A DNA stretch of 64,000 nt from Bdellovibrionales bacterium (lineage in GTDB: Bacteria > Bdellovibrionota > Bdellovibrionia > Bdellovibrionales > JAMPXM01). The notes beneath the pieces are model-generated. The model was not told where the DNA came from, searched no databases, and saw only the letters and a list, made by a program, of their open reading frames with translations. The stretch lies in contig JAYUEN010000107.1 of the NCBI GenBank assembly GCA_043739185.1, forward strand, positions 106-64,105, in the 5' to 3' direction. Below, in pieces: positions 7,273 to 47,084 of this stretch. Every line of letters starts with the position of its first letter. Positions within the stretch are counted from its first letter, which is position 1. The position numbers were made by a program, and so were the translations under genes.

Positions 7273-8363
<1,091 letters not shown>

Positions 8364-11213: not shown

Positions 11214-11263
11214 TAAGACTCGTCCAGAAATAAATTGTAGAATTTATTTCTGGACGAGTCTTA
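11214..11263. repeat. Perfect 23-bp inverted repeat (4-nt spacer) in a divergent promoter region
   Basis: TAAGACTCGTCCAGAAATAAATT (11214-11236), GTAG spacer, AATTTATTTCTGGACGAGTCTTA (11241-11263). It lies between a minus-strand start at 11180 and a plus-strand start at 11285. Confidence 0.9.
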
Positions 11264-17546: not shown

Positions 17547-17825
17547 ATTTTGTAGGATTCAATACAGGGCCAGTGCTTTTGCTTGCGAAATTTGACCTGA
17601 ACAAAAGAGCTTGTTATGATTTGGGTAAGGTATCTGTGGCATTATGCACAGAAGTAAAGAAACCCTACAAGTATAGAGATAGGGGACCGTCCCTGGAAAT
17701 GGTGTGCAAGCTCTGCCTTCGGGACCAGAGAAGCCTAAAGTTTCTATCATGGTCACCCACCTTAACAAATACGGGTTTCTCATTTCTGTTTGCGCCACAG
17801 GTCCCTATTTTTTTTAAAACAAAAT
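17547..17825 (+). ncRNA. Candidate 6S RNA (SsrS-like), unusually long
   Basis: A non-coding 646-bp gap contains, in the same order and with similar spacing as E. coli 6S RNA (recalled from memory), GGGCCAGT (17567), CCAGAGAAGCCTAAA (17725-17739), CACCTTAAC (17758) and GGGTTT (17773). An irregular closing stem is possible: 17566-17576 with 17794-17806, and 17547-17553 with 17819-17825. Boundaries are approximate. Confidence 0.4.
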
Positions 17826-20119: not shown

Positions 20120-22876
20120 GTGAAATTAAAATACATTCTTATAGTCGTTTTTTCTTTAGGCTTCCTAGCAATCGGTGGCGGCGCACTCCTATTTTTTTCA
20201 GCTTCTGCCAATCTTCCCCAAATTATGAAGGTCGAAGATTACAAACCTCTTTTGGTATCCGATGTTTTTGCTCGGGGTGGAGAAAAAATCGGCGAGTTCT
20301 CAAGAGAAAATCGCATTTTAGTGCCTTTTGATAAAATCCCAAAGTTGCTGATCAATTCATTCATTGCTGCTGAAGACGATACTTTTTATGAACATGGTGG
20401 TCTTAACTATTTGGCGATTTTGCGCGCGACACTTGCGAATTTGCGTGCGGGCCGTACCAAACAGGGGGCCTCAACGATTACGCAACAGGTTGCAAAATCT
20501 TTGCTTCTCACTCCAGAGCGCACTCTTTCTCGTAAAATCAAAGAGGCTTTGCTCTCCTATAAAATGGAAGAGAATCTTTCTAAACAAAATATTCTCTACC
20601 TATATCTCAATCAAATTTATTTTGGCGAAGGGGCCTACGGTGTGGCGGCGGCAGCGCAAACCTACTTCAGAAAAAACATCGAGGACCTTAGCATTGCCGA
20701 AATGGCGATGTTGGCCGGCCTACCACAATCCCCTGAGCGCTATGCTCCGTCAAAACACCCGCAACAAGCAAAAGATCGTCAGCGCTATGTTTTGAATCGT
20801 ATGCAAATTGTTGGTTTTATCAATAAAGAGCAAGAAGAAAAAGCTCTCAACGAACCCATTCAAGTTTATTTAGGCAAAGAATATAAAAGTGTCGCGCCAT
20901 TTTATGTTGAAACACTTCGCCAGATGTTGGTTCCAGAAATTGGCGAGGATCGCTTGCTCAATGAAGGCGTTAAAATTTACACCAGTCTGGATTATTCACT
21001 CCAACAAGAGGCGAACATACAAGTGCACGACGGCTTAAGAAACCTTGATAAGCGACAAGGCTATCGAGGTGTCTTAAAGCACATAAATTCAAACGAAGAA
21101 ATGACTGAGTTTTTACTGGCCAGCCGCAAGAACCTGGTTCGCGAATTTGCGCCGGTTCGCATGATTGAAGCTAGCGGAAATGCCCCTAAAGAATTGCCAA
21201 TTACAATTTTTCATAAGAAGGACGCCGCGGGAAATACTTTAAGTAATATCCCTCCATATGTGGCAAAGGGACAAATTCTTGAGGCCGTTGTGAGTCGAAT
21301 TGACGATAAGCTCGGGCTAACCGAAGTAAGATTTGGCGACGGCCAAGCCTTGATTGATGCTTCTGATATTGCTTGGGCGAGAAAGCCCGATACGACCATC
21401 ACAAGTGAAGCAGCTCCCAAAGTTACCAAGCCCTCACAAATATTCAAAGAAGGCGATGTCATTCAAATTAAAGTAAGCGGCGAGCGCTTTTCTTCTCCGC
21501 GCATGGTGAAAGATTTGACGCCCGGAAAATCTAAGATGACACCTGAAAATTTGAAGCTAGTTCACAGCACCTGGGAATACGCACAAGCAAGTCTCGAGCA
21601 AGAACCCCAAGTAGAGGCTTCACTTTTGTCTTTTGATCAGACCACTCAAGAGGTGACCGCAATGGTCGGTGGCAGTGATTTTAAAATCACAAAATACAAT
21701 CGAGCTCTGCAAGCAAAAAGACAAACCGGCTCTTCTTTTAAAGCCTTGGTTTATACTTCGGCACTTGATAAAGGCTGGACGCCGGCAAGCCCCGTCGCAG
21801 ATACGCCCGTTGTTTTTGAAGAAAAAGATGCCGCTGCCGAAGAGGGGCAAGACGATATCAAAAAGTACAAACCTCACAATTATGAAAATAAATTTATGGG
21901 CGAAATGCTTTTTAGAAATGCCTTGATTCGTTCACTGAATATTCCAACCGTAAAAATTTTAACCGATGTTGGCATTGATTGGGCCACCCAATATGCACGT
22001 CGCCTCGGAATTTTTTCTCCTCTTGCAAATGATATCACCATGGGTCTTGGCTCGAGCGGAATTACGCTTTTTGAAATGACCAAAGCTTTTTCTCAAATGG
22101 GCAGACTCGGCAAGCGCATACGCCCCTTATTGATTCAAAAAGTTGTCGACCACTCCGGAAAAGTAATTCTTGAAAAGCTTTCCCTTGATAAAAAATTTGA
22201 AAAGGACCTCGACCCCATTGATAAGCAATTCGAAGACAAACGAAAAGAGTATCTTGCTTCGAGGGCCGATGAGGCTCCTGCGCCGCTGGCATCTCCTACT
22301 TCGGCCGCCAGCGCGGATCACCAAGAGAAAAATAACGATCTCCCGGTTGCAAAGTTTAAAACTCCACATCTATTTTTTGAAGATCCTGAACAACTCATAT
22401 CGCCAGAAACCGCGTATCTCATAACCAGCATTTTAAGAGGCGTCATTTACGATGAGGGTGGAACTGCGGCTCGCGCCCGCGCACTCAATCGGCCCGCCGC
22501 CGGTAAAACGGGTACGACCAATGGCTTTTTTGATACTTGGTTTATTGGCTTCACTCCACAAATTGCAACCGGGGTTTGGGTTGGCTTTGATCAAGAAAGA
22601 ACTCTCGGCGTAGGTGAGGCCGGTGCGAAAACGGCATTGCCGATTTGGCTAGAGTATATGAAGTTTGCCCATAAAAATTTGCCGGTTTTGGATTTTCCCA
22701 AACCAGATAATATAGTATTTGCCAATATCGACAATTTAACAGGTAAACTTGCTTCTTCAACTTCTACCAAAATTGTTCATCAAGCTTTTCTGCGCGGGAC
22801 AGAACCAAAGACTTTAAATGATTCTTCAAATTCAAAATCCGACGCCGATTTGATTAAAGAGGACCTTTCTGATTGA
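20120..22876 (+). CDS. mrcA: Class A penicillin-binding protein 1A (transglycosylase/transpeptidase)
   Basis: GT51 motifs EDDTFYEHGG, GASTITQQVAK and RKIKE. Transpeptidase motifs SSFK and KTGTTNG. The start is GTG and an N-terminal TM anchor is present. Confidence 0.95.
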   Translation: MKLKYILIVVFSLGFLAIGGGALLFFSASANLPQIMKVEDYKPLLVSDVFARGGEKIGEFSRENRILVPFDKIPKLLINSFIAAEDDTFYEHGGLNYLAILRATLANLRAGRTKQGASTITQQVAKSLLLTPERTLSRKIKEALLSYKMEENLSKQNILYLYLNQIYFGEGAYGVAAAAQTYFRKNIEDLSIAEMAMLAGLPQSPERYAPSKHPQQAKDRQRYVLNRMQIVGFINKEQEEKALNEPIQVYLGKEYKSVAPFYVETLRQMLVPEIGEDRLLNEGVKIYTSLDYSLQQEANIQVHDGLRNLDKRQGYRGVLKHINSNEEMTEFLLASRKNLVREFAPVRMIEASGNAPKELPITIFHKKDAAGNTLSNIPPYVAKGQILEAVVSRIDDKLGLTEVRFGDGQALIDASDIAWARKPDTTITSEAAPKVTKPSQIFKEGDVIQIKVSGERFSSPRMVKDLTPGKSKMTPENLKLVHSTWEYAQASLEQEPQVEASLLSFDQTTQEVTAMVGGSDFKITKYNRALQAKRQTGSSFKALVYTSALDKGWTPASPVADTPVVFEEKDAAAEEGQDDIKKYKPHNYENKFMGEMLFRNALIRSLNIPTVKILTDVGIDWATQYARRLGIFSPLANDITMGLGSSGITLFEMTKAFSQMGRLGKRIRPLLIQKVVDHSGKVILEKLSLDKKFEKDLDPIDKQFEDKRKEYLASRADEAPAPLASPTSAASADHQEKNNDLPVAKFKTPHLFFEDPEQLISPETAYLITSILRGVIYDEGGTAARARALNRPAAGKTGTTNGFFDTWFIGFTPQIATGVWVGFDQERTLGVGEAGAKTALPIWLEYMKFAHKNLPVLDFPKPDNIVFANIDNLTGKLASSTSTKIVHQAFLRGTEPKTLNDSSNSKSDADLIKEDLSD

Positions 22877-25954: not shown

Positions 25955-27682
25955 ATGAAAGAACTTTTCAGCACTCTTCAAAAACTTTGGCCTTTTATGA
26001 AGCCCTTCAAGAAAAGGCTTTTTGTGGTTTTTCTCTCCGGCGCTTTTATGGCAGCGCTTTCACCGGTTGCCATTGAACTCGTTAATAAACTTTACCACGC
26101 TTTTGATGAAAAGGACGCGGCTGCCGCAAAATGGATTCCCTATTCCTTTCCCGTTTTGTTTTTATTTCTTGGAAGCGCAAGATATTTACACACGAAAGTC
26201 ACCAAATATACTGCAGAACTTATCTTGGCCAGGATACGACGACGCCTCGTTGAACAATTTGTTCATTTGAATTTGAGCTTTCACAACTCATTCGAGGCCG
26301 GAACTGGTGGACTCATCAATCGCGTTCTCAGCGACACCGGTATTTTACTTGAAGGTTTGTTTTTTATAGTTGCGATCTTTCGCGAACCCATTCTGATTAT
26401 AGTATTGTTTATTCAGATGATCATGATCAACTGGCAACTAACCGCTTTTAGCCTAACGCTTGCGCCGGTTTTCATAATTATGATGAAACAAATTCGCAAG
26501 AGCTTAAGAAAGTACGGGCATCTCAATCGCGAAGCTATGGATAGCCTCACCAGCACGCTCAAAGAAAGCCTTGATGGCGTCCGCATCATTCAGTCATTTA
26601 ATCTAGAAGACAAAATCATGCGTCGCTTTGACGGCAATCAGAACGACTATCTCGATACGCGAAATAAAATTATTACTCGCGAAGAAGCCATTAGCCCAGT
26701 TAATGAATTTATGGGTGCCTTGGGTTTTATGGGCTTCTCAATATTTGCATTTCATCAGATTTTGGGCGGAACTTCTACGCCGGCTGAGTTTACGGCCTTT
26801 GTTATGGCTGCCGGTATACTTCAACCTCCAATTAAAAACTTTCAAACGGCCATGGTTAAAATGCAGCAAAGCTATGTGGTTTGCGAACGCTTGTTTAAAC
26901 TTATTGATAGCGATATGCGCGTTCCACAGATTAAAAATCCACGCCCGTTTCCTCGAGCTTGGCAATGCATTCGCTTTCAAAACGTGAGCTTTGCATACGG
27001 AAAAGAATTGGTTTTGAAGAACTTTTCAATGACTGTAAATCGCGGCGAAGTCGTGGCTCTCGTCGGAGAAAGCGGGAGCGGCAAATCAACCGTAGTGAAT
27101 TTATTGGGTCGCTTTTTCGACCCCACCTCGGGACAAATTTTTGTAGATGATACTCCCATTAACGAATTTGATTTAAAAGATTTACGCAAAAATATAGCGC
27201 TGGTAACTCAAGACGTATTTCTCTTTCGCGATACCATTTCTGAAAATATTCAATCTGGAAATCTAGATCGCATCGATCGAAATGTCGAAGCTGCGGCTCG
27301 TGCTGCCAACGCTCACCATTTTATTTCAAATTTTCCTCAAGCCTATAATAATCAAGTTGGCGAGCGTGGCGGCTTTTTGTCCGGTGGAGAAAAGCAACGA
27401 ATCAGTATCGCCCGCGCTATCTTTAAAGATGCTCCAATTCTCATTCTCGACGAGGCCACCAGCGCTTTGGATAGTGTAAGCGAAATGGAAGTCCAAAAAG
27501 GCCTTCAAAAGCTCATGGAAGGCCGTACCGCCTTTGTTATTGCCCATCGACTGTCTACAGTTTTCAATTCGAATCGAATTGTCGTTATGAAAAAGGGTGA
27601 GGTCGTCGAGTCCGGTGATCATCGCAGCCTGCTTGAAAAAGGCGGCGAATATTCTAATTTTTATAATTTGCAGAAGACCTAA
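25955..27682 (+). CDS. ABC transporter, fused permease/ATPase (MsbA-like lipid exporter family)
   Basis: Six-TM N-terminal domain, Walker A GESGSGKST, signature LSGGEKQRISIARA and Walker B ILILDEATSALD. Confidence 0.85.
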   Translation: MKELFSTLQKLWPFMKPFKKRLFVVFLSGAFMAALSPVAIELVNKLYHAFDEKDAAAAKWIPYSFPVLFLFLGSARYLHTKVTKYTAELILARIRRRLVEQFVHLNLSFHNSFEAGTGGLINRVLSDTGILLEGLFFIVAIFREPILIIVLFIQMIMINWQLTAFSLTLAPVFIIMMKQIRKSLRKYGHLNREAMDSLTSTLKESLDGVRIIQSFNLEDKIMRRFDGNQNDYLDTRNKIITREEAISPVNEFMGALGFMGFSIFAFHQILGGTSTPAEFTAFVMAAGILQPPIKNFQTAMVKMQQSYVVCERLFKLIDSDMRVPQIKNPRPFPRAWQCIRFQNVSFAYGKELVLKNFSMTVNRGEVVALVGESGSGKSTVVNLLGRFFDPTSGQIFVDDTPINEFDLKDLRKNIALVTQDVFLFRDTISENIQSGNLDRIDRNVEAAARAANAHHFISNFPQAYNNQVGERGGFLSGGEKQRISIARAIFKDAPILILDEATSALDSVSEMEVQKGLQKLMEGRTAFVIAHRLSTVFNSNRIVVMKKGEVVESGDHRSLLEKGGEYSNFYNLQKT

Positions 27683-27685
27683 GGA

Positions 27686-27794
27686 CGCCAAAATGTACCT
27701 GCTTAGTTTTGGAGGCGCACCGCAACTTAGCGATTCCTAAATTTGGAGTTATCTGTGCGGTGCGCCTCCAAAACTAAGCAGGTACATTTTGGCG
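27686..27794. repeat. Dispersed palindromic element, copy 1 (39-bp perfect arms, 31-nt loop)
   Basis: The left arm 27686-27724 (CGCCAAAATGTACCTGCTTAGTTTTGGAGGCGCACCGCA) is the exact reverse complement of 27756-27794. It shares the 22-nt core AAATGTACCTGCTTAGTTTTGG with the element at 63003-63113. Confidence 0.9.
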
Positions 27795-27856
27795 CCCGCC
27801 ATCTAAAACTTCGACAGCCCAAATCTAACAAGGCTGACCCGGGCCAGTATTTATTT

Positions 27857-27872
27857 TGGCTTGGCGCTTGCT
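27857..27872 (+). promoter_or_regulatory. Candidate sigma-54 promoter
   Basis: TGGCTTggcgcTTGCT has correct GG-N10-GC spacing with TTGC at -12. It lies about 70 nt upstream of the ATG at 27941. Confidence 0.45.
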
Positions 27873-27940: not shown

Positions 27941-29260
27941 ATGCGAACAGATTCTTACTATTCGAAATCTAAACATTGGTTCGCACGCTTTACCTTGAGT
28001 ATTTTTCTTTTGAATTTGGTTTGTGGCAATGGTGTCGCCGCAGATTCACCGTCTGATGGTTTAGCAAATGCGCCAATTGCATCTGAAGCAAAGGAGCCCA
28101 CTCGCTACTCACCTGGGGCCGCCGAGAATGCATTAATAGATGCAGAATATCTGGCCGAACTAGCAAAACTCTATCTTCCTGAAATAAACAGACAGCTTGA
28201 AAATATGGTCCCCATGGCAGACTTGAAATATGAAGAATGGCGCTCACGCAAAATTGCTTACCTAGTGGCTCAGAGTAGCTCCTTTGTTAAGACGCTATCG
28301 AATCAAATCTTTTTAAATCATCCAGATGTTTTGTATTTTCGCATTGGCTACGAAATCGCATCTTGGGCTGCTGTCGCACCTCTTGCCGTGTCTGGTCATC
28401 CAGGTTTGATCGCTGCCCTACATTTTCCTGCAATCGGAACTATATCAACTGGCGCTTACTTCATTACCAAGACGTGGATAGAAAAGCGCCACCTTAAAAA
28501 GCAGTATGGTGTTGATCCCGATAAGGTTGACGATCTTCATATGCGGTTGGTTACGGAGGAGGCGGTTAAATCAATTCGCCTTCACGTTTTAAACGACGAA
28601 AATATGACTCATTTTTTCGCCGTAGGAAAACGTACTGTGCTCAAAGCCACTTCTGGCGAGTATTCTCCAGATTTTATTGCCGTTAACGAGCTCGAAGATT
28701 TGATCGACAATCCAGACTTTCTTAACAAGGCTAGAAACTTGAGTCTCGAGCCAAGCCTTTATGAAGAACTACTAATACAAAAAGTCCTATCAACACCTGA
28801 ATTGAAAACTCGATTAATTGCGAGAGTAAAGTCCCTGAAACCTCTTAATTTTGATTCATGGGGCCTGTGGGTAACTGAAACCGAAGCCTTTTTAAATCGC
28901 GCTCGAGTCGAAGCTACGCTGCAGGAACTCAAGGCAATAAAAATTTTAAAGGCCGCCATAGACTTCAAAACTTTAAAAAATTCTGCAAACTTAGCGGAAT
29001 CTGTAGATGACCGGATTGAACATTTCAAAAAAGTTTATGCCGAAGCTCATGCCCAAAGAAGCATTCTTCGAAAACAAATAATCGATGCCGATGCCGCTCA
29101 GAAAAAGGTAATCGCTGCAATTTTAAAGGGTGAAAAGCCAGATGAAGTAAGCGTAAAGGAAGACTTTCACAGGCAGCGCGCGAGTGTGCTTGTGGGCTTT
29201 GAAATGTATAAAAACTATTATTCAGAATATGCCGTCGTCTGCGAAGATTACTTTAAATAA
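27941..29260 (+). CDS. Hypothetical protein with signal/anchor sequence and hydrophobic segments
   Basis: 439-aa ORF with a hydrophobic N-terminus (FTLSIFLLNLVCGNGVAA), an internal hydrophobic stretch (IASWAAVAPLAVSGHPGLIAALHFPAIGTISTGAYFI) and a helical C-terminal half. No family recognised. Confidence 0.55.
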   Translation: MRTDSYYSKSKHWFARFTLSIFLLNLVCGNGVAADSPSDGLANAPIASEAKEPTRYSPGAAENALIDAEYLAELAKLYLPEINRQLENMVPMADLKYEEWRSRKIAYLVAQSSSFVKTLSNQIFLNHPDVLYFRIGYEIASWAAVAPLAVSGHPGLIAALHFPAIGTISTGAYFITKTWIEKRHLKKQYGVDPDKVDDLHMRLVTEEAVKSIRLHVLNDENMTHFFAVGKRTVLKATSGEYSPDFIAVNELEDLIDNPDFLNKARNLSLEPSLYEELLIQKVLSTPELKTRLIARVKSLKPLNFDSWGLWVTETEAFLNRARVEATLQELKAIKILKAAIDFKTLKNSANLAESVDDRIEHFKKVYAEAHAQRSILRKQIIDADAAQKKVIAAILKGEKPDEVSVKEDFHRQRASVLVGFEMYKNYYSEYAVVCEDYFK

Positions 29261-33458: not shown

Positions 33459-36167
33459 CTAAAATCGCTTTTTCTTTTTGTTTCGCTCAAGTTCTCGGCG
33501 ATCTTTGCGTGACATATTCGAGCCACCTGCGCCGCTCCCACCGCCACCTTCACCACCGCCCGAATAGATGAGGCGTTGTTTGCGTTTGGGTTGAAGTGCT
33601 TGTAGCGCAACTTCAGAGTCTGCATTGCCGCTATCATCGTCCTCATAGTCTTCGTCAGACTCTTCGCTTTCAGGGTCCATGATTTCTTTGGGCGGCTGGT
33701 GCGGCTCACCTTGTTGCTGTTGCACCAACTGAATTTTTAAGAACTTCTCTACTACTTCGGCTTTAATTGCGAAGTTCATTTCTTCGAATTTTTTAAAAGC
33801 CTCTTGCTTGTATTCGACGAGAGGATCTTTCTGTGCATAAGCACGCAAATTGATCCATTCGCGAAGCTGATCAATTCCCTGCAAATGATCTTTCCAACGT
33901 TGATCAATGGTTTGCAACAAAATCATTTTCTCAACTTGTTTAAAGTACGGACCGAGCTTCACGATTTGTTCGTCGAAGGCGCGCTTCACTTCTTTTTTTA
34001 CAACTTCGGTCAGCTCCGCAGCACTATGAATATTTCCGGGGCTGAGAGCGAGCTGCAAGCCGTACTGTTGAACAATTGCGGTGCTGAGGCCTGGCAAATT
34101 CCATTGTTCAGGCTTCAATCTCTCTTCTGCAAAAGTATCTAATATTGTACCGGTCACATCGGACAACATATCTACGATAATCTGATCAAGGCGATCACCA
34201 CCTTGAAGAACTTCTTTTCTCAAACCATAAATTACGAGGCGTTGCTTATTCATGACGTCGTCGTATTCTAATAAATGCTTTCGAATGTCAAAATTGTGAC
34301 CTTCTACTTTTCTTTGTGCGCCTTCAATCGAAGAAGAAACCATCCCTGCTGTGATCGGCTCGTCTTCTGGCATATTCATCGCATTCATGAGCTTTTGAAT
34401 TCTTTCGCCATTGAACTTTCTCATGAGATCATCATCAAGCGCCAAATAAAATCGCGATGCGCCCGGATCGCCTTGGCGACCTGAACGGCCCCGCAATTGA
34501 TTGTCGATACGACGAGACTCGTGTCTTTCGGTTCCGATAATTTTGAGTCCACCGGCCTCGATCACTTGTTTTTTTTCAGCCTCGCAAACGTTTTTGAAAT
34601 CTTCGACCGCCTTGTGAAACTCCTCACTTTCGTGATCTTTTACTTTGTGCTTTGCCAGTCCTTCAGGGTTTCCGCCAAGCACAATATCAGTGCCTCGGCC
34701 GGCCATATTGGTGGCAATGGTGACAGATCCTTTGCGACCCGCTTGTGCTACAATTTCTGCTTCGCGCTCGTGAGCTTTCGCATTTAAAACATTATGTGGA
34801 ATGCCCGCGCGTTTGAGATATGTACTAATATGTTCGGAACGCTCAATACTCACAGTACCGACTAGAACCGGCTGACCCATTTTTTGACATTCAATAATAT
34901 CTTTTATGATGGCGTTGTATTTGCCGTTGGCATTTTTATAAATCACGTCTTCGGTATCAAGTCTGCGTACCGGCCTATTGGTAGGAATTACCGAAACCTC
35001 GAGATTATAAATCTTTTTCATCTCGACAGCTTCGGTTTCAGCAGTTCCCGTCATGCCGGCAAGCTTTTTATACATTCGAAATAAGTTTTGAAACGTGATG
35101 GTTGCAAGCGTTTGATTTTCATTTTTTACTTTAACATTCTCTTTCGCTTCAACGGCTTGGTGAAGACCATCACTCCAGCGGCGCCCCTCCATCAGGCGAC
35201 CCGTGAATTCATCGACAATGATGACTTCATCATCTTTCACCATATAGTCGACATCTTTTGAGTAAAGGTGATGCGCTTTTAGCCCCTGATAAATATGATG
35301 CAAGAGCGCGATATGTTCAGGGTCATACAAATTGCCAATCTTAAGAAGTTCTTCGCAGCGAGAGTTGCCGTCTTCAGTCAAAGAAACTGTTTTGGTTTTC
35401 TCCTCCATAGTGAAATCGATTTCTTTTTTCAAAAATGGAATGATCGCATTGATTGTATAATATTTATCAACCGCATCTTCTGCAGCACCTGAGATAATGA
35501 GCGGCGTTCGCGCCTCATCAATCAAAATCGAGTCACACTCATCGACAATTGCAAAGTTGAGCGGGCGCTGCGTGTATTCGCGCAAGTCAAACTTCATATT
35601 GTCGCGCAAATAGTCGAAACCTAATTCGTTATTAGTTGCATAGGTGATGTCGGCATTATAGGCCTCTTGCTTTTCTTCATCACTTTGCCCGTGCTTGATC
35701 ACTCCGGTTTTGAGTCCCAGCCAAGAATAAAGTTTGCCCATCCATTCGGCGTCACGACTTGCAAGATAGTCATTCACCGTCACGACGTGAACACCTTTGC
35801 CCTCAAGCGCATTCAAATAAACTGCTAAGGTAGCAACAAGTGTTTTGCCTTCCCCGGTTTTCATCTCAGCAATACATCCACGGTGTAAAATTATACCGCC
35901 GATGAGCTGCACATCATAATGGCGCATTCCTAGCACCCTTGTTGAGGCTTCGCGACAGACGGCAAAAGCTTCAGGCAAAATTTGATCTAAGCTTTCACCT
36001 TTTGCGAGGCGGGCTTTGAACTCAGGCGTTTTTTGTTGGAGCTCAGCGTCCGAGAGCGACTTCATTTTTGCATCAAAAGAATTAACATTATCAACAATCG
36101 GCTGAAGTCGCTTCATTTCACGTTGATGTTGAGTTCCAAAAACTTTCGCTAACAATGTGGTAACCAT
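33459..36167 (-). CDS. secA: Preprotein translocase ATPase SecA
   Basis: N-terminal LLAKVFGTQHQREMKRLQPIV, Walker A MKTGEGKTL and DEAD-like VDECDSILIDEARTPLIISG. The start is placed at ATG 36167, preceded by a GAGGA Shine-Dalgarno. The ORF-track TTG at 36179 is less likely. Confidence 0.95.
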   Translation of the reverse strand: MVTTLLAKVFGTQHQREMKRLQPIVDNVNSFDAKMKSLSDAELQQKTPEFKARLAKGESLDQILPEAFAVCREASTRVLGMRHYDVQLIGGIILHRGCIAEMKTGEGKTLVATLAVYLNALEGKGVHVVTVNDYLASRDAEWMGKLYSWLGLKTGVIKHGQSDEEKQEAYNADITYATNNELGFDYLRDNMKFDLREYTQRPLNFAIVDECDSILIDEARTPLIISGAAEDAVDKYYTINAIIPFLKKEIDFTMEEKTKTVSLTEDGNSRCEELLKIGNLYDPEHIALLHHIYQGLKAHHLYSKDVDYMVKDDEVIIVDEFTGRLMEGRRWSDGLHQAVEAKENVKVKNENQTLATITFQNLFRMYKKLAGMTGTAETEAVEMKKIYNLEVSVIPTNRPVRRLDTEDVIYKNANGKYNAIIKDIIECQKMGQPVLVGTVSIERSEHISTYLKRAGIPHNVLNAKAHEREAEIVAQAGRKGSVTIATNMAGRGTDIVLGGNPEGLAKHKVKDHESEEFHKAVEDFKNVCEAEKKQVIEAGGLKIIGTERHESRRIDNQLRGRSGRQGDPGASRFYLALDDDLMRKFNGERIQKLMNAMNMPEDEPITAGMVSSSIEGAQRKVEGHNFDIRKHLLEYDDVMNKQRLVIYGLRKEVLQGGDRLDQIIVDMLSDVTGTILDTFAEERLKPEQWNLPGLSTAIVQQYGLQLALSPGNIHSAAELTEVVKKEVKRAFDEQIVKLGPYFKQVEKMILLQTIDQRWKDHLQGIDQLREWINLRAYAQKDPLVEYKQEAFKKFEEMNFAIKAEVVEKFLKIQLVQQQQGEPHQPPKEIMDPESEESDEDYEDDDSGNADSEVALQALQPKRKQRLIYSGGGEGGGGSGAGGSNMSRKDRRELERNKKKKRF

Positions 36168-36324
36168 AATAATCCTCAAAATCCTCTAATCAAAAGAGAC
36201 AAATTTCTCAGTGATTATGATATCATGAAGATTGGCCTGCGATCTATCTAAACCTCATGGCTAAGCAATTCGGGGCACGCTTAACGCGAAGCCAAACGAA
36301 GCCTCGGAATCAAAGGATACTGGC

Positions 36325-37317
36325 CTATAAATTCATTTTGTAATTAGCTTCAAAATCCGCAATTTGGGTGCCCGCATAAAGTTGCTTTATCGTTTTGAAA
36401 ACCATGTCCTCATCAGAAATCCAAAAAGCTTCTCGGCGCGAGACTTCAAGATTACGCGCCTGCTCCTCTAAAACACGAAAATCCTGCCTGACCAAAATCC
36501 CGGTAAAGAATTTGAACATTGGCTTTTTTACTAATCTAAAAAACCCGGCTTTTTTAAATTGAAAAACCAGTGACCCGGCGCTCATCCTTTCCTTTCTTTC
36601 GCTTACAAAAAGACTAACTCTTAAATCCAGGCCTGCCGGGCTCCAGTACTCCAGTACGGCCACATCCGGATGAAAATACTTGCCAATTGTTTTGCTTCGC
36701 TGGCCTTCAAATATTTGACTGATGATACCCTTCGGGGTGGCTTCATTTAAATATTCAACCGAAAGGCATTGCTCCGTTGATTGATAGCGTGCCTTTACGT
36801 CTACCGAAACCCGATCACTCGAAGCTCTCAAAAAAGGCGCATGAATATAATGGGTATGAAGTGGATCAAGTAAGTTTTCTAGAATATGAATTTTCTGCGC
36901 CTTAATGCTGCAGCTATGACGAAAGCCGTCCATCTCTGCTTCTTCGAGGTTGGTCATCCAAGTCGGCAAAGCGGTTTCCGAATGATCTGAAATAAAAAGC
37001 AGTTCGCCAAAATTTCGAATCGCAAAACTCTTCAAACAAAGTTTTGGTGTCAGACCTTCGACAAAGCCAGGCCGCGCCAGGAGATTCCCTAGAGAATCAA
37101 AGCTCCAGCCATGATAGGAGCATTTTAAGTTGTACTCCTCGCCTGTTTTTTCAAGCAGGCCCTCACTCAGCGGAAAGCCGCGATGCGGGCAGTAGTCTAA
37201 AAATGCGCGATAAGTTTTCTTTACTTGGAATACAACAATCGCCTGTCCTTTAAAAAACAAGCGATTGGGGCGACCTTCTACTAAGTTTTTCGAATCCTCC
37301 AGAAAATGCCAGCTCAC
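36325..37317 (-). CDS. Rieske [2Fe-2S] non-heme-iron oxygenase
   Basis: Rieske ligands CPHRGFPL ... CSYHGWSF and mononuclear iron motif DPLHTHYIH (D-x2-H-x4-H). It starts 3 nt after the stop of the upstream 470-aa gene. Confidence 0.85.
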   Translation of the reverse strand: MSWHFLEDSKNLVEGRPNRLFFKGQAIVVFQVKKTYRAFLDYCPHRGFPLSEGLLEKTGEEYNLKCSYHGWSFDSLGNLLARPGFVEGLTPKLCLKSFAIRNFGELLFISDHSETALPTWMTNLEEAEMDGFRHSCSIKAQKIHILENLLDPLHTHYIHAPFLRASSDRVSVDVKARYQSTEQCLSVEYLNEATPKGIISQIFEGQRSKTIGKYFHPDVAVLEYWSPAGLDLRVSLFVSERKERMSAGSLVFQFKKAGFFRLVKKPMFKFFTGILVRQDFRVLEEQARNLEVSRREAFWISDEDMVFKTIKQLYAGTQIADFEANYKMNL

Positions 37318-37320
37318 AGA

Positions 37321-38733
37321 TTACTTTGCTCCAAATCCTCCGGCGACATCATTGAGCACGCGCAAGCTTCGTGCGATCGAATCCGAATCGGTGGTTTCGA
37401 AGTATTGCTGGTAAATTTCGGTATTCCAAGCTTTTGCGCTCCCTTGATGAAAATTTCGATACTCAACTGCTTTGGTTCCCTCTTTAAGTTCAAGATTCAC
37501 CGTGTTTTTATATTTCATGTCAAAATCATTCGGAAAAAACTTTTTCAAATCTTCTGGCGCTTCATTGTTGAAGACCTTGGGCAAATATACTTTCGCGGTT
37601 TTGCCGGTCACTAAACTTCGCACCATTTTGCCCGCAAATAAGCGTTCAAGATTAGCAAGATAAAGATCGGCCGTTGATTTATCAAGACTGATCAGTGCAT
37701 TTGGCAAAGAAAAGCCTGCGTTGGCAGGACGGGCTTTGAGACCACTCCAGGCATCGGTCATGCGATCCAAAGCTTCTCCTATATAGACACCCGCCTCTGT
37801 CATAAACTTTTGACCAATATTTTCTTTTTTATTTAGCTTCCAAAGTTTGGCGTTTTGGGGCTTCTGAAGAAGTTTATAAATCTCATCTCCCGTCACCCCG
37901 TCAACGGCTAGAAATGTACCCTTAACAAAAGCATCGAAGCCGTAAAGGCCACCCACTTGCTTGGCAAAATCTAGAGCACCATTCTGATTATAAGCACATA
38001 AAAAATCCATACTTGCTACGCTTAAATCATATTGAGCAATTAGCAGTTGCAATTCCTCAGTGCCAAAGCTCAGTTCGCGATTCAAGCCATCAGCAAAAGA
38101 GTCTGCACCTGCAGAGATACGACGATCCCACTTAAATACGCGCGCATTCGAAATTTGATTAAGCGCCGAAATGAGATCGTTGGTTTTCATTCGAAGCGTA
38201 TCATTAATAAAAGTCTGAATTGCGGCCTCGTTTTCGATTTTGCCAACAAGGACGCCCTCAATCTCGAAGGGACTTGCCAAATAATCTAAGAGTGCGCCAG
38301 AGGCCTGAGCCGGACTAAAGAGGCTGATGCCGGCTACATTTTGTTTTATAAAAGACACGATGAGCGATTGAATATTGTGATTATCCGCAGAGCCTCTTTC
38401 GAAAAAGGGTCGTACTCGCCAAAAAAAGCCACGCACAGCCTCTAAATAGATGAGGTGTGCATTTAAAAACTGCGCCGACGGATCGTGAATCTTCGCGCGA
38501 TTCGCCTTAGCAGATTCTATTAAAGCTTGAAAATCATTTGCGGTCTTTGCATCCAAAACTTTTTTAACCAATTGTTCGTATTCGCTCTCAGAAGACGGCG
38601 TTCGTTTTTCTTCTTCTGCTTTGGCCTGTGCCTTTTTATAGCCCGGGGCCTGCAGTCCCCGCCAAATCAAATCTTCTGACTTTGCGGCCGCCAATACGGG
38701 CACTAACAAAAGCATCAAAAACAATTTTTTCAT
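37321..38733 (-). CDS. Secreted hypothetical protein
   Basis: 470-aa ORF with signal peptide MKKLFLMLLLVPVLAAA. No recognisable family. It is tightly coupled to the Rieske oxygenase gene. Confidence 0.6.
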   Translation of the reverse strand: MKKLFLMLLLVPVLAAAKSEDLIWRGLQAPGYKKAQAKAEEEKRTPSSESEYEQLVKKVLDAKTANDFQALIESAKANRAKIHDPSAQFLNAHLIYLEAVRGFFWRVRPFFERGSADNHNIQSLIVSFIKQNVAGISLFSPAQASGALLDYLASPFEIEGVLVGKIENEAAIQTFINDTLRMKTNDLISALNQISNARVFKWDRRISAGADSFADGLNRELSFGTEELQLLIAQYDLSVASMDFLCAYNQNGALDFAKQVGGLYGFDAFVKGTFLAVDGVTGDEIYKLLQKPQNAKLWKLNKKENIGQKFMTEAGVYIGEALDRMTDAWSGLKARPANAGFSLPNALISLDKSTADLYLANLERLFAGKMVRSLVTGKTAKVYLPKVFNNEAPEDLKKFFPNDFDMKYKNTVNLELKEGTKAVEYRNFHQGSAKAWNTEIYQQYFETTDSDSIARSLRVLNDVAGGFGAK

Positions 38734-38839
38734 TTCAATTCTCCTGGTTTTAAAAAGTCAGAATATCTTAAATCTAACACTAGTAGAATCCTCTATGCAT
38801 TTTAATTTACAAACATGGTCGATGGTTGGGCCCAGCTAA

Positions 38840-40567
38840 CTATTTTTTAAAAACATACTGGCCCAGCACCAGCATATCGAGACCCGAAGTGAAAAATACC
38901 GCAAGCGCATCTTCAACATCGTGAATAATCGGACGGCCCATGACATTGAAGCTCGTATTGAGCAGGACCGGGACTTTGGTCTTTTTATAAAAGCTATTGA
39001 GCAAAGCATAAAATCTTGGATTGTCTTCTTTTCTCACGCTTTGCACTCGCCCCGTTTCGTTGCAATGCACGACTGCAGGGGCGATTTCGGTGTTCTTAAA
39101 CCTCAATGTTCTCTCCATATAAGGAGAGTATTGATAGTTGTGAAAAAGCTCGGGGCCCTTTTCATCTAGAATACTCGGCGCAAAAGGCCTGAACTCTTCT
39201 CGAAACTTAATGCGTTCATTGATGTGATCCTTGGTCTTGGCTTTTCGGGGATCAGCCAAAATCGAGCGATTGCCAAGTGCCCGCGGACCAAACTCCGCCC
39301 GACCTTGTACCCAACCTACAAGCTTTCCTTCTGAAAGTTCTTTTGAAACCTCCTCAATCAATTCGTTTTCACTGAAAAATTTAGCCTTTAGGCCTCCGAG
39401 TCGTATGGCGCGTTCAATTGTTTCTGTTGAAATCTCTGAACCTAAAAATGCGGTATGTGCATTGAGTGGTCGTTGTTTCGGATGATCTTTCATCCAACTC
39501 AAATAAGCCGAACCGATTGCATTTCCGTCGTCACCGGGCGCCATTGAAATATGCAAATTTTTAAATGGCGTTCTCTCCAAAAGGACCCCATTACAAGATG
39601 AGTTGAGTGCACAGCCTCCGCCCAAAATGAGATTGGCGCCACCCCATTTACTGTGAACCTGCACAAGTAACTCACACATCAATTCTTCAAAAATCGCTTG
39701 CCCTGCGAAAGCGAGATTGGCCGCCTCAAGGGGACTTCGAAACTTTTCTCGGAGACTTAGGAGTTTCGTGAGTTGCTCGGCATATCGCGGGGACTTCTGA
39801 ATGCTCTGATTTTTAATTTTTAGCAGAGATCGACATAAATTTTCATATTCACTTTGCATTTTTCCATAAGGGGCGAGGCCCATCACCTTCCACTCTTCGC
39901 CGGCAAGTGGATCAAAGCCGCAGGCCCAACAAACCGCCGCATAAAAAAGACCCAAACTTGCAAAATCAGCAAAGCTCTTGGTTTTGATTCTTTCGATCTT
40001 GGCGTTTTCAAATGAAAAAATCGCCTGGCTCGTAGCTTCACCTGCGCCGTCAACTATCACGCAGATTGCATTATCAAACGGACTCGAATAGCACGCCGTT
40101 GCTGCATGACAAAGGTGATGTTCCCAGCCTATTTTTTTCAAGTTTTGCAACTTCTTCATTTCAAAAAGACGATATTCTAGATTCAATAGCATATCGCGAT
40201 TGTTGATAGGGGCTCCGTACATAGCTTGGCGAAAGGAGTGGGTCTCCATTTGTTGGCCCAATTGAGAAAAGCGCGCATGAAAGCTCGCTTGCAAATTCAA
40301 TATTTTTTTTGTTAGCCAGGACCATTTGAGAATGTCATCTGACCAAGAAAGTCCGGCAACTATTGGCCCATCATTGACATACTTTTTCAAAATACCATCT
40401 AAAAATAGTACAGGGTCCGGAGAAGTATTCCAGGCGCGCTTGTTTTTTAAAACTCTCTCATTGGCTTCGGCAAATAGCAACTGACCGGCTTCATTCAGAA
40501 CTGCAATTGCAGAATCATGTGAAGTGGTGCCAAAACCTAAATATGTCGCCATGCTTGCAATTCCCAT
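38840..40567 (-). CDS. Carbamoyltransferase (NodU/CmcH family)
   Basis: N-terminal YLGFGTTSHDSAIAVL (ASKHA-like carbamoyltransferase N domain), the C-terminal signature RAEFGPRALGNRSILADPR and LNTSFNV. Confidence 0.85.
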   Translation of the reverse strand: MGIASMATYLGFGTTSHDSAIAVLNEAGQLLFAEANERVLKNKRAWNTSPDPVLFLDGILKKYVNDGPIVAGLSWSDDILKWSWLTKKILNLQASFHARFSQLGQQMETHSFRQAMYGAPINNRDMLLNLEYRLFEMKKLQNLKKIGWEHHLCHAATACYSSPFDNAICVIVDGAGEATSQAIFSFENAKIERIKTKSFADFASLGLFYAAVCWACGFDPLAGEEWKVMGLAPYGKMQSEYENLCRSLLKIKNQSIQKSPRYAEQLTKLLSLREKFRSPLEAANLAFAGQAIFEELMCELLVQVHSKWGGANLILGGGCALNSSCNGVLLERTPFKNLHISMAPGDDGNAIGSAYLSWMKDHPKQRPLNAHTAFLGSEISTETIERAIRLGGLKAKFFSENELIEEVSKELSEGKLVGWVQGRAEFGPRALGNRSILADPRKAKTKDHINERIKFREEFRPFAPSILDEKGPELFHNYQYSPYMERTLRFKNTEIAPAVVHCNETGRVQSVRKEDNPRFYALLNSFYKKTKVPVLLNTSFNVMGRPIIHDVEDALAVFFTSGLDMLVLGQYVFKK

Positions 40568-40669
40568 TTTATTTTCTCAAGTTGACATTCTACTTCATTT
40601 TGCAAGAATGCCAAGCGCGGGCTGGTTACTTTTTTGGGAACCGCGCCATAAGCGATCGCGAGATTTAAT

Positions 40670-42802
40670 TTGAACTCATTAATCCGTCGTTTTTACTTTC
40701 ACTTTACTAGGCGAAAACTTCAGGCTGTGTTTGCGGCGCTTCTATTGATTTTTTTATCGCTCCCAGCATTGCAATTGAAATTCAAGACTGAAATAAAGGA
40801 TTTGCTAGAAGGCAACTCGCCTGAGGTCTCGCAATACAAAGAAAATCTTAAGCTTTTTCAGCCTGCGAATCGCTTGATTGCTCTTTTGTCAAAGCGCGAT
40901 CAAAGCGTTTGGCGTGAAGCGGATTTGATAAATCTCAAAACCTGGATAACTGAAACAAAAGCTCAATACAAATTTGTAGAAAATATCCTTTCACCCTTAT
41001 CCATACGAACCGCCGTCTTTGATTCAAAAAAATCGCAATTGAACTTCCCCCTGATTCTCCATCCTGAGGGCTCAATCCAAACGCTAGATTGGGACCGCTT
41101 TTCAACTTCGTACTGGGCTCCTTTCTTCTTGGGAAATGATCGCAAAAGTCTCATTTTGAGTTTTACTTTGAACAGCCAAGCCGGCCCGCCAGAACTGAAA
41201 TTACTCACACAAATGAAGGACGCTCCGGGAAATTTTACGATGGCGTGGACTGGCGACCAAATTTTCAAACTCTTTTCTGAAAATGCTATGAAGAAAATGT
41301 CTTGGTTGAATCTCATTGGCGTTTGCGCTCTCTTTGCATTTATCTGTTTGCTCTTCTCAAGTTGGACCGCTGGTCTTTTCACTATTCTTTCGGTTCTCTT
41401 GGGAATTCTGCCGATATTTGGCTTCATCGGGCTCGCCGGACAGGCTATAGATTTGCTCACCTCGAATTTGTTTTTACTCTTATTGATTGCCACCATTGAA
41501 GACGTCTTATTGGTTTTTTATTTTAGCGCTAAAAAGAATACTTCGATAGAAAGGAGCCTCGAAGAATTACTTCTGCCGTGCTTTTATACTTCACTAACGA
41601 CGGCAGTGGCTTTTGGCAGCCTGGGTGTTTCAGAAATTCCGATGGTTCGTCAATTTGCTTTATGGAGTAGTCTCGGTGCGTTTACCGAATGGTTTGTCGT
41701 CTTCTTTGTTGTTCCTGAACTCTTAAACAATTTTAAAAGGCAACGGCTTGAACTACTTTGGCTTCCTCGGATGCCAATATTTAAATTTAAGGCCCTCTCT
41801 TTTTGGATTAAAATTCTTTTGCTGCCCCTCGTAGCAGCACCAATATTGATATCAAAACTCAATTATAACGCCAGCCCGTTTGACATATTTAATTCGAATC
41901 ATCCGGTTCTTCACGTAAGAGAGAAATTGAGTGAAAGTCGCCATTGGGAAAATTCAATAGAAGTGGTTTTTTCAAATGATTTGCCAGTAAACACTGAAAA
42001 GTCCCTATTGTTACAAATGCAAAGTATTTCAAATATAAGCTGGATCGAACACCCTTATTTGATGCTCGAAGATTCGCTCACAAATGAGCTCTCTGCAGAA
42101 ATGAAAGATCTTGCTTTGAGCCAACTGCAATTCTCAGACTATGCAAAAAAATATTTCGCGGAAAACCGCCACCGCGGATTTTTATATATTCAAAATTCAG
42201 ACATGCCCTCCGTATCGCAAACCAAACAGCAGCTAGAGCAAATTTGTAATGAGCGCTGTCATATAACCGGAGAGCTGATTGCCTTTGGCGAATATTCTCG
42301 CGCCTTGGTTCGAACACTAAGCGAGAGTTTCATTTTCAGTTTGTTTTTAATATTAGTGGTTTTGTTTCTAATCTGTCGGCAGCTGAATATAAGCCGCCTG
42401 CACTTTATCTTTGCTTCCGTTCTTTGGGGCCCCTGCATGATGGTTTTGTTTTTCTTTTTTACCCATACTGCCGTTAGCTTAGTGAATTGCATTTTGCTTT
42501 CAACGGTTGTTGGTCTTTCTGGCGACTTCATGATTCAAGTCATGTTCAATCAAAAGCAAGGCTCCCTGGAGACCTCACTCGCCGCTTTTGGGCCTGCAAG
42601 TATGCTTTTGACCTTTCTTTTGGTGGGCTTGTGCGTCCCTTTTCTGTGGTCGCCTTTCGGAAATGTTCAAACCACAGGTTGGTTGCTGATGTTGAGCATA
42701 TTTTTAATTTCAATCGGAGATGTGCTGATTTTTAAACTGCTTTTGAGTTATAATTTGAAAATTTTCAAAAGCGGAAGCGCAATTGAAAACAATAAGGCTT
42801 GA
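40670..42802 (+). CDS. MMPL/RND-superfamily membrane exporter
   Basis: 710-aa ORF (TTG start) with two blocks of multiple TM helices separated by soluble loops, an architecture typical of predicted MMPL-type exporters. Its 3' end overlaps the convergent acyltransferase-like gene by 55 nt. Confidence 0.65.
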   Translation: MNSLIRRFYFHFTRRKLQAVFAALLLIFLSLPALQLKFKTEIKDLLEGNSPEVSQYKENLKLFQPANRLIALLSKRDQSVWREADLINLKTWITETKAQYKFVENILSPLSIRTAVFDSKKSQLNFPLILHPEGSIQTLDWDRFSTSYWAPFFLGNDRKSLILSFTLNSQAGPPELKLLTQMKDAPGNFTMAWTGDQIFKLFSENAMKKMSWLNLIGVCALFAFICLLFSSWTAGLFTILSVLLGILPIFGFIGLAGQAIDLLTSNLFLLLLIATIEDVLLVFYFSAKKNTSIERSLEELLLPCFYTSLTTAVAFGSLGVSEIPMVRQFALWSSLGAFTEWFVVFFVVPELLNNFKRQRLELLWLPRMPIFKFKALSFWIKILLLPLVAAPILISKLNYNASPFDIFNSNHPVLHVREKLSESRHWENSIEVVFSNDLPVNTEKSLLLQMQSISNISWIEHPYLMLEDSLTNELSAEMKDLALSQLQFSDYAKKYFAENRHRGFLYIQNSDMPSVSQTKQQLEQICNERCHITGELIAFGEYSRALVRTLSESFIFSLFLILVVLFLICRQLNISRLHFIFASVLWGPCMMVLFFFFTHTAVSLVNCILLSTVVGLSGDFMIQVMFNQKQGSLETSLAAFGPASMLLTFLLVGLCVPFLWSPFGNVQTTGWLLMLSIFLISIGDVLIFKLLLSYNLKIFKSGSAIENNKA

Positions 42803-43836
42803 AGAATTCGAAAGCCAATTCGGCGTGGCCATGACAAATGCTTTATATAAACGGCGCTGTACTCAATCACTGGCCGCCCCCCGCGCAGCCGCTTAAATTC
42901 AGAGGCTCCAGAGCTCAAATTAACTAGGAGCTTGCGCTCTTTTGCATACCGAAGCGCCAGCGCAATCAAGAGCCGGTAAAGACCTTCTTTTTGCGGCCGT
43001 CGAGTATCATAACCTACAATTGGCACAGTCAATACTTCGTCCACAATAAAATACCCCACGACCCCTTGCAGCTCACCCTTCTCGTCTCGCAAGCCAAAGA
43101 GCTTCATGACCCCAGACTCTTGGCAAAGCTTGAGATAGCTTGCTGAAAAGGCCGGGTTATACTGCGAATATTTTTCTAAATAAAGCAAAGCATATAGCTC
43201 TTCACTGCGCTGAAAATCCTGATCTGAGAACTCAGTGCCGTTTACGATTTGCAAACTGCTGCGATCTAATAGTTTTTGATCGCGAAACATATTTTTCGAC
43301 TTGATCTGTTGACCAATTCGAAAATCGAAAAAGTATACCTGCCGCGAAGGAATCAAGCTAAATCCGAGCCGACGAAGTCCGTGGATCAGGTCGGCATTCG
43401 TAAAGTAATTCAGCGAGCGGAAAATTATAAAATGTTGATCGGCTTTTCGAATACTTTCTTTTGCCCATTCAGAAAATGCCGTTTCGGAGTTTTTGGGGTA
43501 GAGATTAGTTGATAGTAACCAATTGTTAATGCTTATAGACTGATTCAGCCGCATAGCTTTCAGCAAATAGGATAGGGGCAACAAGATGAGTCCTAAAAGC
43601 CCGAGTATCATTGGTAGCTTTTTCAGCTCTTGACGTGAATACAGTATGAGCGCCGAGTACGGTGATACCACATAAGAAGCGTTGAACTCGGCAAAGTTGG
43701 CCGTACTAGGCGACCAGAAATCTTTCTTCTGACTCCAACTCAATTGAGTCATGACGTTTGGAATCAATTTTTGGATTTCTTCCTTGCCGACAAATTTACT
43801 TCGAAATTCGGAGTGCGGCCAATTTTTATCAGCCAT
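42748..43836 (-). CDS. FemAB/CelD-like GNAT-fold acyl/aminoacyl-transferase (putative)
   Basis: The C-terminal block GELQGVVGYFIVDEVLTVPIVGYDTRRPQKEGLYRLLIALALRYAKERKLLVNLSSGASEFKRLRGG resembles the CelD/FemAB-type acetyltransferase domain. It is the last gene of the six-gene operon. Confidence 0.45.
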   Translation of the reverse strand: MADKNWPHSEFRSKFVGKEEIQKLIPNVMTQLSWSQKKDFWSPSTANFAEFNASYVVSPYSALILYSRQELKKLPMILGLLGLILLPLSYLLKAMRLNQSISINNWLLSTNLYPKNSETAFSEWAKESIRKADQHFIIFRSLNYFTNADLIHGLRRLGFSLIPSRQVYFFDFRIGQQIKSKNMFRDQKLLDRSSLQIVNGTEFSDQDFQRSEELYALLYLEKYSQYNPAFSASYLKLCQESGVMKLFGLRDEKGELQGVVGYFIVDEVLTVPIVGYDTRRPQKEGLYRLLIALALRYAKERKLLVNLSSGASEFKRLRGGRPVIEYSAVYIKHLSWPRRIGFRILQALLFSIALPLLKIFKL

Positions 43837-46245: not shown

Positions 46246-47084
46246 TCGAGGCCGCCACTCAATTTCAGAAAAGTTTCTATACAATGCGAGGGAATCAGCT
46301 GAAGTTCAGGTTGTTTCAAATACAAAGTGTGAATTTTCGAAAAAGTTTTGAGATACTCTTTTGAACTATCAAAGACGAGTCCGGCCACACGCGGAGGTGG
46401 CCGCATTTCTCTCAATGCTTTGAGGCTCCAAGAAGCGTCGGCAATCATAAAACATTTACCATTTTTTTCGGAATTGAAAACCAAGCCAACTTGTCCTTCT
46501 TTATGGCCAGGAAGATCAATCGCAATAAGCGACCCATCTCCGAATAAATCGGCCCCTGAAAATACGAATTGACTGGCCGCTTGTCCGCTCCATGTTCTGC
46601 AGTCATCAATCCAAACAACTCGCTTTAGGAAATCCTTTGGCAAAAGATGTGGAAGATACGCATTGAGCAAATTTCGCCATGCACTTTTGCCATAATTGTT
46701 TTGAAAGGCACTCTTGCGACATAAAAATTTTGCCTTTTTAAAATCTTTTAAGCCCGCAATATGATCTCCATGAAAATGCGATATGACAATCCAGTTTACC
46801 TCAGCCGGAGCGATGCCGCGCGTTTTCAGCTGCTGGGCCGCCGTCTGATTTTTTGAAATAAAACCCGGACTAATGAGTGGGTAGATATTCTCTGGCCATT
46901 TGACTCTACGATTGTATTCGGGGTGGTAGCCGGTATCAAAAAGTATAACGCCCTCTTGAGGATGCCGAATGATTGCAAACAGCGAAGGAAACTCACAAGA
47001 CCGAAAAGACCCATTTTTCATACTGAGAATCTCGGGGTGACGACAAAAGCCCGCCTTACAAAGTTCAAACTCTAATCTTTTCAT
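46242..47084 (-). CDS. Metallo-beta-lactamase-fold hydrolase
   Basis: HxHxDH motif ISHFHGDHIAG, with downstream His/Asp ligands (LPGHKEG, DASW). It forms an ATGA overlap with the SDR gene. Confidence 0.85.
   Translation of the reverse strand: MKRLEFELCKAGFCRHPEILSMKNGSFRSCEFPSLFAIIRHPQEGVILFDTGYHPEYNRRVKWPENIYPLISPGFISKNQTAAQQLKTRGIAPAEVNWIVISHFHGDHIAGLKDFKKAKFLCRKSAFQNNYGKSAWRNLLNAYLPHLLPKDFLKRVVWIDDCRTWSGQAASQFVFSGADLFGDGSLIAIDLPGHKEGQVGLVFNSEKNGKCFMIADASWSLKALREMRPPPRVAGLVFDSSKEYLKTFSKIHTLYLKQPELQLIPSHCIETFLKLSGGLE

Follow-up and report, generated by a model that had tools for sequence, protein, structure and literature searches.

Hairpin repeats such as ERIC/IRU, Correia/NEMIS, RUP and YPAL insert near the ends of genes, are co-transcribed with them and can alter the fate of the mRNA. 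In REPINs, invariant inverted 16-mers are held at a fixed distance of 71 bp, and the spacer between them is variable in sequence but constrained in length and pairing, with frequent compensatory changes (PMC3116915). Here we describe two palindromes, copy 1 and copy 2, which were found in a 64-kb stretch of DNA (referred to as the window, i.e. the whole stretch that was analysed) and which resemble these systems to different degrees. The window is ordinary chromosome of an uncultured member of the Bdellovibrionota with a GC content of about 43-45%, and its genes include uvrA, an msbA-like ABC exporter gene, a sigma-54 activator gene, secA, glnA, pantothenate genes, leuS and speA. The 6S/SsrS RNA gene was located at 17628-17807 (plus strand); its Rfam match scores 64.1 bits, the gathering score being 46.4.

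Two palindromes with a common core

Copy 1 is a palindrome of 115 bp at 27683-27797, composed of a left arm (27683-27724), a loop (27725-27755) and a right arm (27756-27797). Reading of the sequence confirmed the preliminary description of perfect 39-bp arms (27686-27724 and 27756-27794) around a loop of 31 nt, starting 3 nt past the TAA stop codon of the MsbA-like ABC exporter gene, and the repeat finder extended these arms to 42 nt with a single A/C mismatch near the outer end. The second copy, which had been placed at 63003-63113, was also recovered, with arms that reach 63002 and 63114. It is a palindrome of 113 bp with a left arm at 63002-63043, a loop at 63044-63072 and a right arm at 63073-63114, which corresponds to 42-nt arms with one mismatch and a loop of 29 nt according to the repeat finder. 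That the inner arms are self-complementary within each copy held for copy 1; in copy 2, however, T63037 stands opposite G63079 and forms a G.T pair in the strain of the window. In two further assemblies of this species (L016 and L018), C stands at this site and the stem is perfect. No other local inverted repeat of the window comes close to the two copies in strength, and none comparable to either of them was found in about 150 kb of DNA from relatives.

Each of the four arms contains the 22-mer AAATGTACCTGCTTAGTTTTGG, in agreement with the earlier statement that the outer core is exactly common to both copies. It occurs exactly four times in the window, twice per copy and on opposite strands, namely at 27691-27712 (plus) and as the reverse complement at 27768-27789 (minus) in copy 1, and at 63009-63030 (plus) and 63086-63107 (minus) in copy 2. 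From dinucleotide shuffles, 0.01 matches would be expected by chance, and none of 100 shuffles reached four. In its wider form the conserved core reads CC(A/G)AAATGTACCTGCTTAGTTTTGG and thus comprises 22-25 nt within the 42-nt inverted arms. The distance between the core starts (77 bp) and the length of the inner segment (55 nt) are identical in both copies, whereas the loops are indeed unrelated, as only about 39% of their aligned positions are identical, which is the background level. Such a constant inner length despite unrelated loops, as read from the two sequences, points to a constraint.

Folding of the transcribed element as RNA led to predicted hairpins of -88.1 kcal/mol (plus strand) and -88.7 kcal/mol (minus strand) for copy 1, with z of about -15, and of -91.6 kcal/mol (plus strand) and -90.8 kcal/mol (minus strand) for copy 2, with z of about -16 to -17. 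Single arms folded as DNA gave -4.5 to -6.0 kcal/mol with z from -0.3 to +1.5 against shuffles and were therefore no better than shuffled sequences; the sole pairing inside a single arm is a weak 6-bp CCAAAA/TTTTGG. The ends of the arms read GGACGCC/GGCGCCC and AGCCCCG/CGGGGCT. A candidate sigma-54 promoter in the inner arm was rejected on inspection, as the distance between GG and GC is wrong by one. A single reading frame runs open through the two cores (MYLLSFG ... PKLSRYI). Another perfect palindrome of the window, located at 11214-11263 in a divergent intergenic region, has 23-bp arms and a 4-nt loop (TAAGACTCGTCCAGAAATAAATT / AATTTATTTCTGGACGAGTCTTA), has no relation to the core and is a possible operator, lying about 20 nt upstream of a HAD-family gene at 11285.

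Compensatory differences between the copies

The two copies were aligned without gaps and scored against the hairpin, which yielded 43 stem pairs. Invariant pairs accounted for 32 of these; eight pairs showed two-sided changes, none a one-sided change, and the other three departed only via unpaired cells. Overall, 96.9% of the cells in the stem alignment were paired. When the partner was slid by one to three columns as a control, pairing fell to 32-45% and the double changes vanished. Five of the compensated pairs are found inward of the core and three outward of it, so that the outer stem beyond the core also differs with compensation, a feature that the preliminary description had missed. 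Because the compensated pairs flank both sides, the core is embedded within a longer homologous stem and is not located at its tip. A run of 22 identical nucleotides among 42 pairs with eight differences has a probability of about 0.01 if the differences are placed at random. Both the hairpin and the core are conserved non-randomly, as seen from the compensation of all eight differences and from the length of this run, and to this extent the proposed selection on both is supported.

All stem pairs are of the Watson-Crick type, with one strain-specific SNP as the only G.U-type exception. Stems of this kind suggest that the complementarity is maintained in the DNA itself or on both strands, and are less like the result of a fold of one RNA strand. 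The excess conservation of the core in turn suggests a sequence-specific protein partner.

Assembly and genomic context

The element is not an assembly artefact. Copy 2 is traversed by the NCBI-derived window, by an ENA scaffold (L016) and by a MEGAHIT contig (L018), which are identical in the copy except for the one SNP; over their length the latter two are 99.8-99.9% identical to the window. Logan contigs built with k=31 end 30-33 nt inside the arms of both copies, which is what a palindrome exceeding k should cause, and no palindromes were detected at the remaining Logan contig ends that were checked. Palindromes like these break short-read assemblies of this organism and affect the contiguity of metagenome-assembled genomes. 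Contigs found via the proteins at the window edges added 662 bp beyond the window on the right and none on the left.

Both copies are located directly at stop codons. The gene for the MsbA-like ABC exporter (25955-27682, plus strand) ends with a TAA at 27680-27682 that directly abuts copy 1. Upstream of copy 2, speA (61084-63003, plus strand), encoding a biosynthetic arginine decarboxylase, ends with a TAG at 63001-63003 that overlaps the first two bases of the palindrome. On the other side, the TGA at 63114-63116 of a convergent gene for an OppC-type peptide ABC permease (63114-63974, minus strand, running past the window) overlaps its last base. Copy 2 fills exactly the whole gap between the two convergent stop codons.

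Downstream of copy 1, a small native hairpin (GACAGCC ... GGCTGAC) was read from the alignment at 27813-27838 (plus strand), which we infer to be the positional homologue of the AGACAGTC ... GACTGTCT hairpin after msbA in a relative (L012). It is followed by a terminator-like hairpin with a T-rich tail at 27839-27864 (plus strand), recognized by consensus match only. The left junction of copy 1 reads CTAA (27679-27682, plus strand) and contains the bases of the stop codon; a second CTAA is found at 27803-27806, 5 nt past the right arm. This pair may represent a target-site duplication that includes the stop codon. In the flanks of copy 2 no comparable duplication was seen. There, GAGGATCC was considered as a target duplication and rejected, as both of its occurrences are ancestral coding sequence according to the relatives (LEDPE* in SpeA and (L/M)DPR in the permease).

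The MsbA of the window ends with ...NLQKT* (27665-27682) and is 6 aa shorter than the homologues in three relatives (L008, L010 and L012), which end with ...NLQMNQ(N/H)(E/D)RM(S/T/A)*; MsbA homologues have variable C-terminal tails. Judging from these termini, copy 1 could have been inserted past an already shortened msbA with duplication of CTAA, or inside the 3' end of the reading frame followed by a change from CAA to TAA. On its other side, copy 1 lies 143 nt upstream of a hypothetical gene of 439 aa. This ORF (27941-29260, plus strand), flanked by copy 1 on one side and the sigma-54 activator gene on the other, has no Pfam or NCBIfam match; a 35%-identical homologue of 376 aa is present at its position in L010, and no gene is found there in L008 and L012.

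Orthologous sites in relatives

Syntenic loci of relatives were obtained via protein look-ups. After msbA, no element is present in L010 (88% protein identity) or L012 (83%), the latter having a small hairpin only. In L008 (89% MsbA identity), an unrelated imperfect palindromic insertion of 186 bp (8082-8267) directly follows the msbA stop codon; it has 45-nt arms that are 78% complementary, is bordered by CTAA on both sides and uses the same junction as copy 1. The presence of this unrelated insertion indicates that the msbA junction accepts palindromic insertions repeatedly.

The closest relative, L022, shows 96% amino acid identity in SpeA, with DNA that is only about 76-82% identical, and has the same convergent order of speA and oppC. 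A different, near-perfect hairpin (1462-1512) with 25-nt arms and 1 nt between the arms fills its inter-stop gap and thus occupies the slot of copy 2. Homology between copy 2 and this hairpin appeared suggestive by eye but was unsupported by a profile search and was therefore rejected. More distant relatives have other genes after speA and no element. Synteny breaks right after speA (63004 onwards), where four relatives (L019, L023, L026 and L027) differ from the window and L022: an arginase-family, dksA-like or asparaginase gene follows speA in relatives at 82-91% identity, and a convergent opp-type permease operon in the window and L022.

Judged by these loci, both copies are specific to the lineage of the window, at positions where sister lineages have a simple hairpin or another palindromic insertion. 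Since the DNA of even the closest relative shows no more than about 76-82% identity, the copies could be of old date, and their divergence could have taken place on the spot, under selection and with no continuing mobility.

The comparison with relatives also revealed a block of about 13 kb (36200-49167) between secA and a spoU-type methylase gene that is absent in L008 and L012. Among its products are a Rieske protein, a carbamoyltransferase, an MMPL transporter, a FabH-like enzyme, an epimerase and a metallo-beta-lactamase-fold protein, along with several unknowns, and the block is probably a lineage-specific biosynthetic island. Between spoU and glnB/glnA, an imperfect inverted repeat is present at 49815-50001, with 31-nt arms that are 74% complementary and 125 nt apart. 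An analogous repeat with 34-nt arms is located at the same intergenic position in L008 (15878-16003), and this may be a conserved regulatory region.

Searches for further copies and partner genes

An exact scan with the 19-mer TGTACCTGCTTAGTTTTGG led to no palindromic copy in 185,579 GTDB representative genomes, JGI metagenomes and IMG/VR, collections from which the species is apparently absent. All matches were single-arm (two in genome contigs, none in viral contigs and four in metagenome contigs), which is in line with chance, as by our rough estimate a few are expected in collections so large. Protein look-up gave JGI contigs, one of them 789 kb long, from a relative with 83-91% protein identity. 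These contigs were presumably among the records scanned, and if so, the core family would not be common to the lineage of that relative. When an nhmmer profile of the four arms was run against about 250 kb of related loci, the known copies and no diverged ones were recovered.

Other approaches were likewise negative within their scope. Plasmids and phages searched by BLAST with copy 1 gave nothing relevant, a full-text literature search with substrings of the core led to one unrelated primer only, and the translation of copy 2 in the frame open through the cores gave no candidate in a set of 5.8 billion proteins. No Rfam family was matched at the gathering score by either copy, the only passing match of the window being the 6S RNA located elsewhere; matches to miRNA precursors at a relaxed E-value were below the gathering score and were rejected as reflecting a generic long hairpin. 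The element contains no ORF of note and matches no named family in Rfam, plasmid and phage BLAST or the literature string search, just as the preliminary description had it. A parent insertion sequence with these ends or this core was not found in any collection scanned.

A RAYT gene, for which a search had been suggested beforehand, did not turn up: about 37 larger ORFs of the window were compared with Pfam and NCBIfam, and no transposase, RAYT or integrase was found among these, a result that covers the window only. For about 11 further ORFs of at least 150 aa, such as 20120-22876, 33459-36179 and several at 50104-58532, the identification came from synteny with annotated relatives only. The RAYT search covered window ORFs of at least 150 aa. 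The known copies therefore amount to two in 64 kb of one genome. It had been argued beforehand that two copies only, together with relatives that lack them, would speak for a chance duplication. The relatives are indeed empty at both orthologous sites and the collections scanned hold no further copy, with this genome itself having been searched over 64 kb.

Possible origin and role of the element

From the anatomy of the palindromes, the compensation in their stems, the conservation of the core above chance, the absence at orthologous sites and the position at stop codons, we give about even chances to an explanation in which both copies belong to a family of dispersed repeats that is restricted to this lineage, non-autonomous and hairpin-forming, with a design like that of REPINs or foldback MITEs; its mobility, its protein partner and its effect on RNA are what we infer from these observations. 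Among the three options offered originally (a REP/MITE-like mobile hairpin, a protein-recognised terminator or insulator, and an mRNA-stabilising 3' structure), the mobile hairpin fits best owing to the REPIN anatomy (PMC3116915), and a canonical terminator does not fit, as there is no U-tract. As members of such a family, the palindromes would carry in their core the recognition site of a mobilising or binding protein encoded elsewhere in the genome. The element would be handled as a single-stranded hairpin, or its arms would be kept identical by template-switch correction of quasi-palindromes, and either route would lead to mirrored, Watson-Crick-only differences in both arms. The inner segment would be free to vary in sequence while its stem part stays paired. 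New elements would insert at the hairpin slot directly behind stop codons or would displace it. Upon co-transcription, a 42-bp stem of about -90 kcal/mol would form, which would probably obstruct transcription or 3' exonucleases; at speA/oppC this obstacle would be bidirectional and would substitute for the simple hairpin of the closest relative.

A more far-reaching version of a mobile repeat, which we consider quite unlikely, would be an undescribed REPIN-like replicator of the Bdellovibrionota, in which the core duplex of 22-25 bp instead of a REP stem-loop is recognised by a non-RAYT enzyme and which invades or replaces post-stop terminator hairpin slots. A replicator that invades such slots would explain the unrelated palindromes at the same junctions in sister lineages.

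The position directly at stop codons may also be explained without any mobility. The palindromes would then be 3' structures selected by the host at few loci and recognised by a protein or an RNase, acting as terminator, insulator, mRNA-stability or translation-coupled element, with the core duplex being what is recognised and selection for pairing preserving the remaining stem. This is possible, though in our view rather doubtful. It would agree with the start of both copies 0-3 nt past a stop codon, with the filling by copy 2 of a convergent inter-stop gap that a simple hairpin occupies in the closest relative, with a core conserved beyond the rest of the stem, with a hairpin predicted to be highly stable on both strands, and with the lack of other copies in the collections scanned, which apparently do not contain this species. 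In E. coli, REP hairpins at most about 15 nt from the stop codon reportedly affect the expression of the upstream gene (Liang, Rudd and Deutscher 2015), which also speaks for a host-selected structure. However, the orthologous sites are empty in every relative examined, so that the role would have to be very recent, there is no U-tract, and stems with Watson-Crick pairs only, one SNP aside, are unusual for selection on one RNA strand. A perfect double-stranded RNA of 42 bp is moreover expected to be a substrate of RNase III rather than a protective cap, and no regulatory logic common to msbA and speA is evident. Arm-to-arm templated correction of quasi-palindromes is an established mutational mechanism that yields mirrored, Watson-Crick-only differences. 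In a further explanation, one palindrome might have been copied once by ectopic recombination or gene conversion, with arms homogenised by template-switch correction, and might be a functionless accident without mobility machinery. That only two copies are known fits this, and a DNA identity of 76-82% to the nearest sampled relative leaves time for the loops to randomise. Neutral homogenisation, though, would spread differences evenly, whereas all eight of them avoid the 22-nt block (P of about 0.01), and the two copies agree in an inner length of exactly 55 nt although their loops are unrelated; an accident of this kind is therefore unlikely.

Highly improbable, finally, is an integron attC-like or other tyrosine-recombinase site (dif/IMEX-like) at a gene-cassette boundary. 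Such a site could account for a hairpin with conserved blocks and a variable centre directly past stop codons and for gene content that varies among relatives near both copies (the 439-aa ORF and the synteny break after speA). It would be difficult to reconcile with ends that lack RYYYAAC/GTTRRRY, with bulge-free stems that have neither extrahelical bases nor a central unpaired spacer, with the lack of an integrase among the window ORFs scanned, with flanking housekeeping genes in conserved order and with the speA/oppC arrangement of L022, which exists without the element. A dif/Xer-like site was rejected as well, as the XerD-arm consensus is absent and the core is unlike the dif of B. bacteriovorus listed in PMC2731167.

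If many copies of the family of dispersed hairpin repeats came to light, the range of REPIN-like hairpin replicators would be widened to include an uncultured lineage of the Bdellovibrionota, and the family would offer a clean case of stem co-variation around a frozen recognition core. In any event, the palindromes occupy positions where terminators are expected and so affect the annotation of 3' ends.

Comparison with known systems

Integron attC sites share with the element conserved boxes, a variable centre, a location just past the stop codon and the logic of a folded strand; the element differs from them in having no R''/R' consensus, extrahelical bases, integrase or cassette array, and an assignment to attC was rejected on the grounds of its ends, its stems and the missing integrase given above. 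Bidirectional terminators are resembled in that copy 2 fills a convergent inter-stop space and replaces a hairpin with 25-bp arms of the relative. In contrast to such terminators, neither a U- nor an A-tract is present, a 42-bp stem with a loop of about 30 nt is far outside the norms, and the same 22-mer recurs 35 kb away. A canonical intrinsic terminator was rejected, as a terminator scan called neither copy and no T-run follows either right arm.

Closer are the palindromic MITEs of about 100-170 bp (ERIC/IRU, Correia/NEMIS, RUP and YPAL), which are also hairpin-folding repeats near gene ends, and L008, a neighbouring lineage, shows an insertion of this kind, accompanied by a duplicated CTAA, at the junction of copy 1. 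MITE copies, however, have a common internal sequence and need pairing at their terminal repeats only, whereas the palindromes described here combine unrelated loops with compensation along the entire stem. With unrelated interiors, no clear target-site duplication and no parent insertion sequence, a classical MITE was rejected.

The most extensive similarities are those to REPINs. Like these, the element is extragenic, about 100 bp long and built from two invariant inverted blocks at a fixed distance (77 bp here compared to the published 71 bp), its spacer is less conserved with length and pairing kept by compensation (eight two-sided and no one-sided changes here), and it forms one long hairpin for which no target-site duplication is expected. 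Differences are that a single arm is not a REP-type imperfect palindrome with its own stem-loop, that no GTAG-type motif is evident and that the arms are paired perfectly over 42 bp. The host of the REPINs is a gammaproteobacterium, while here it is represented by a metagenome-assembled genome of the Bdellovibrionota. REP-RAYT systems comprise tens to hundreds of copies per genome, compared to the two copies known here from 64 kb, and include a cognate single-copy gene for the RAYT (a Y1 HUH transposase) that is flanked by repeats. The element thus appears REPIN-like in its architecture, but we do not file it in the REPIN/RAYT group. It is a modest addition, real and fairly ordinary, to the well-known class of intergenic hairpin repeats.
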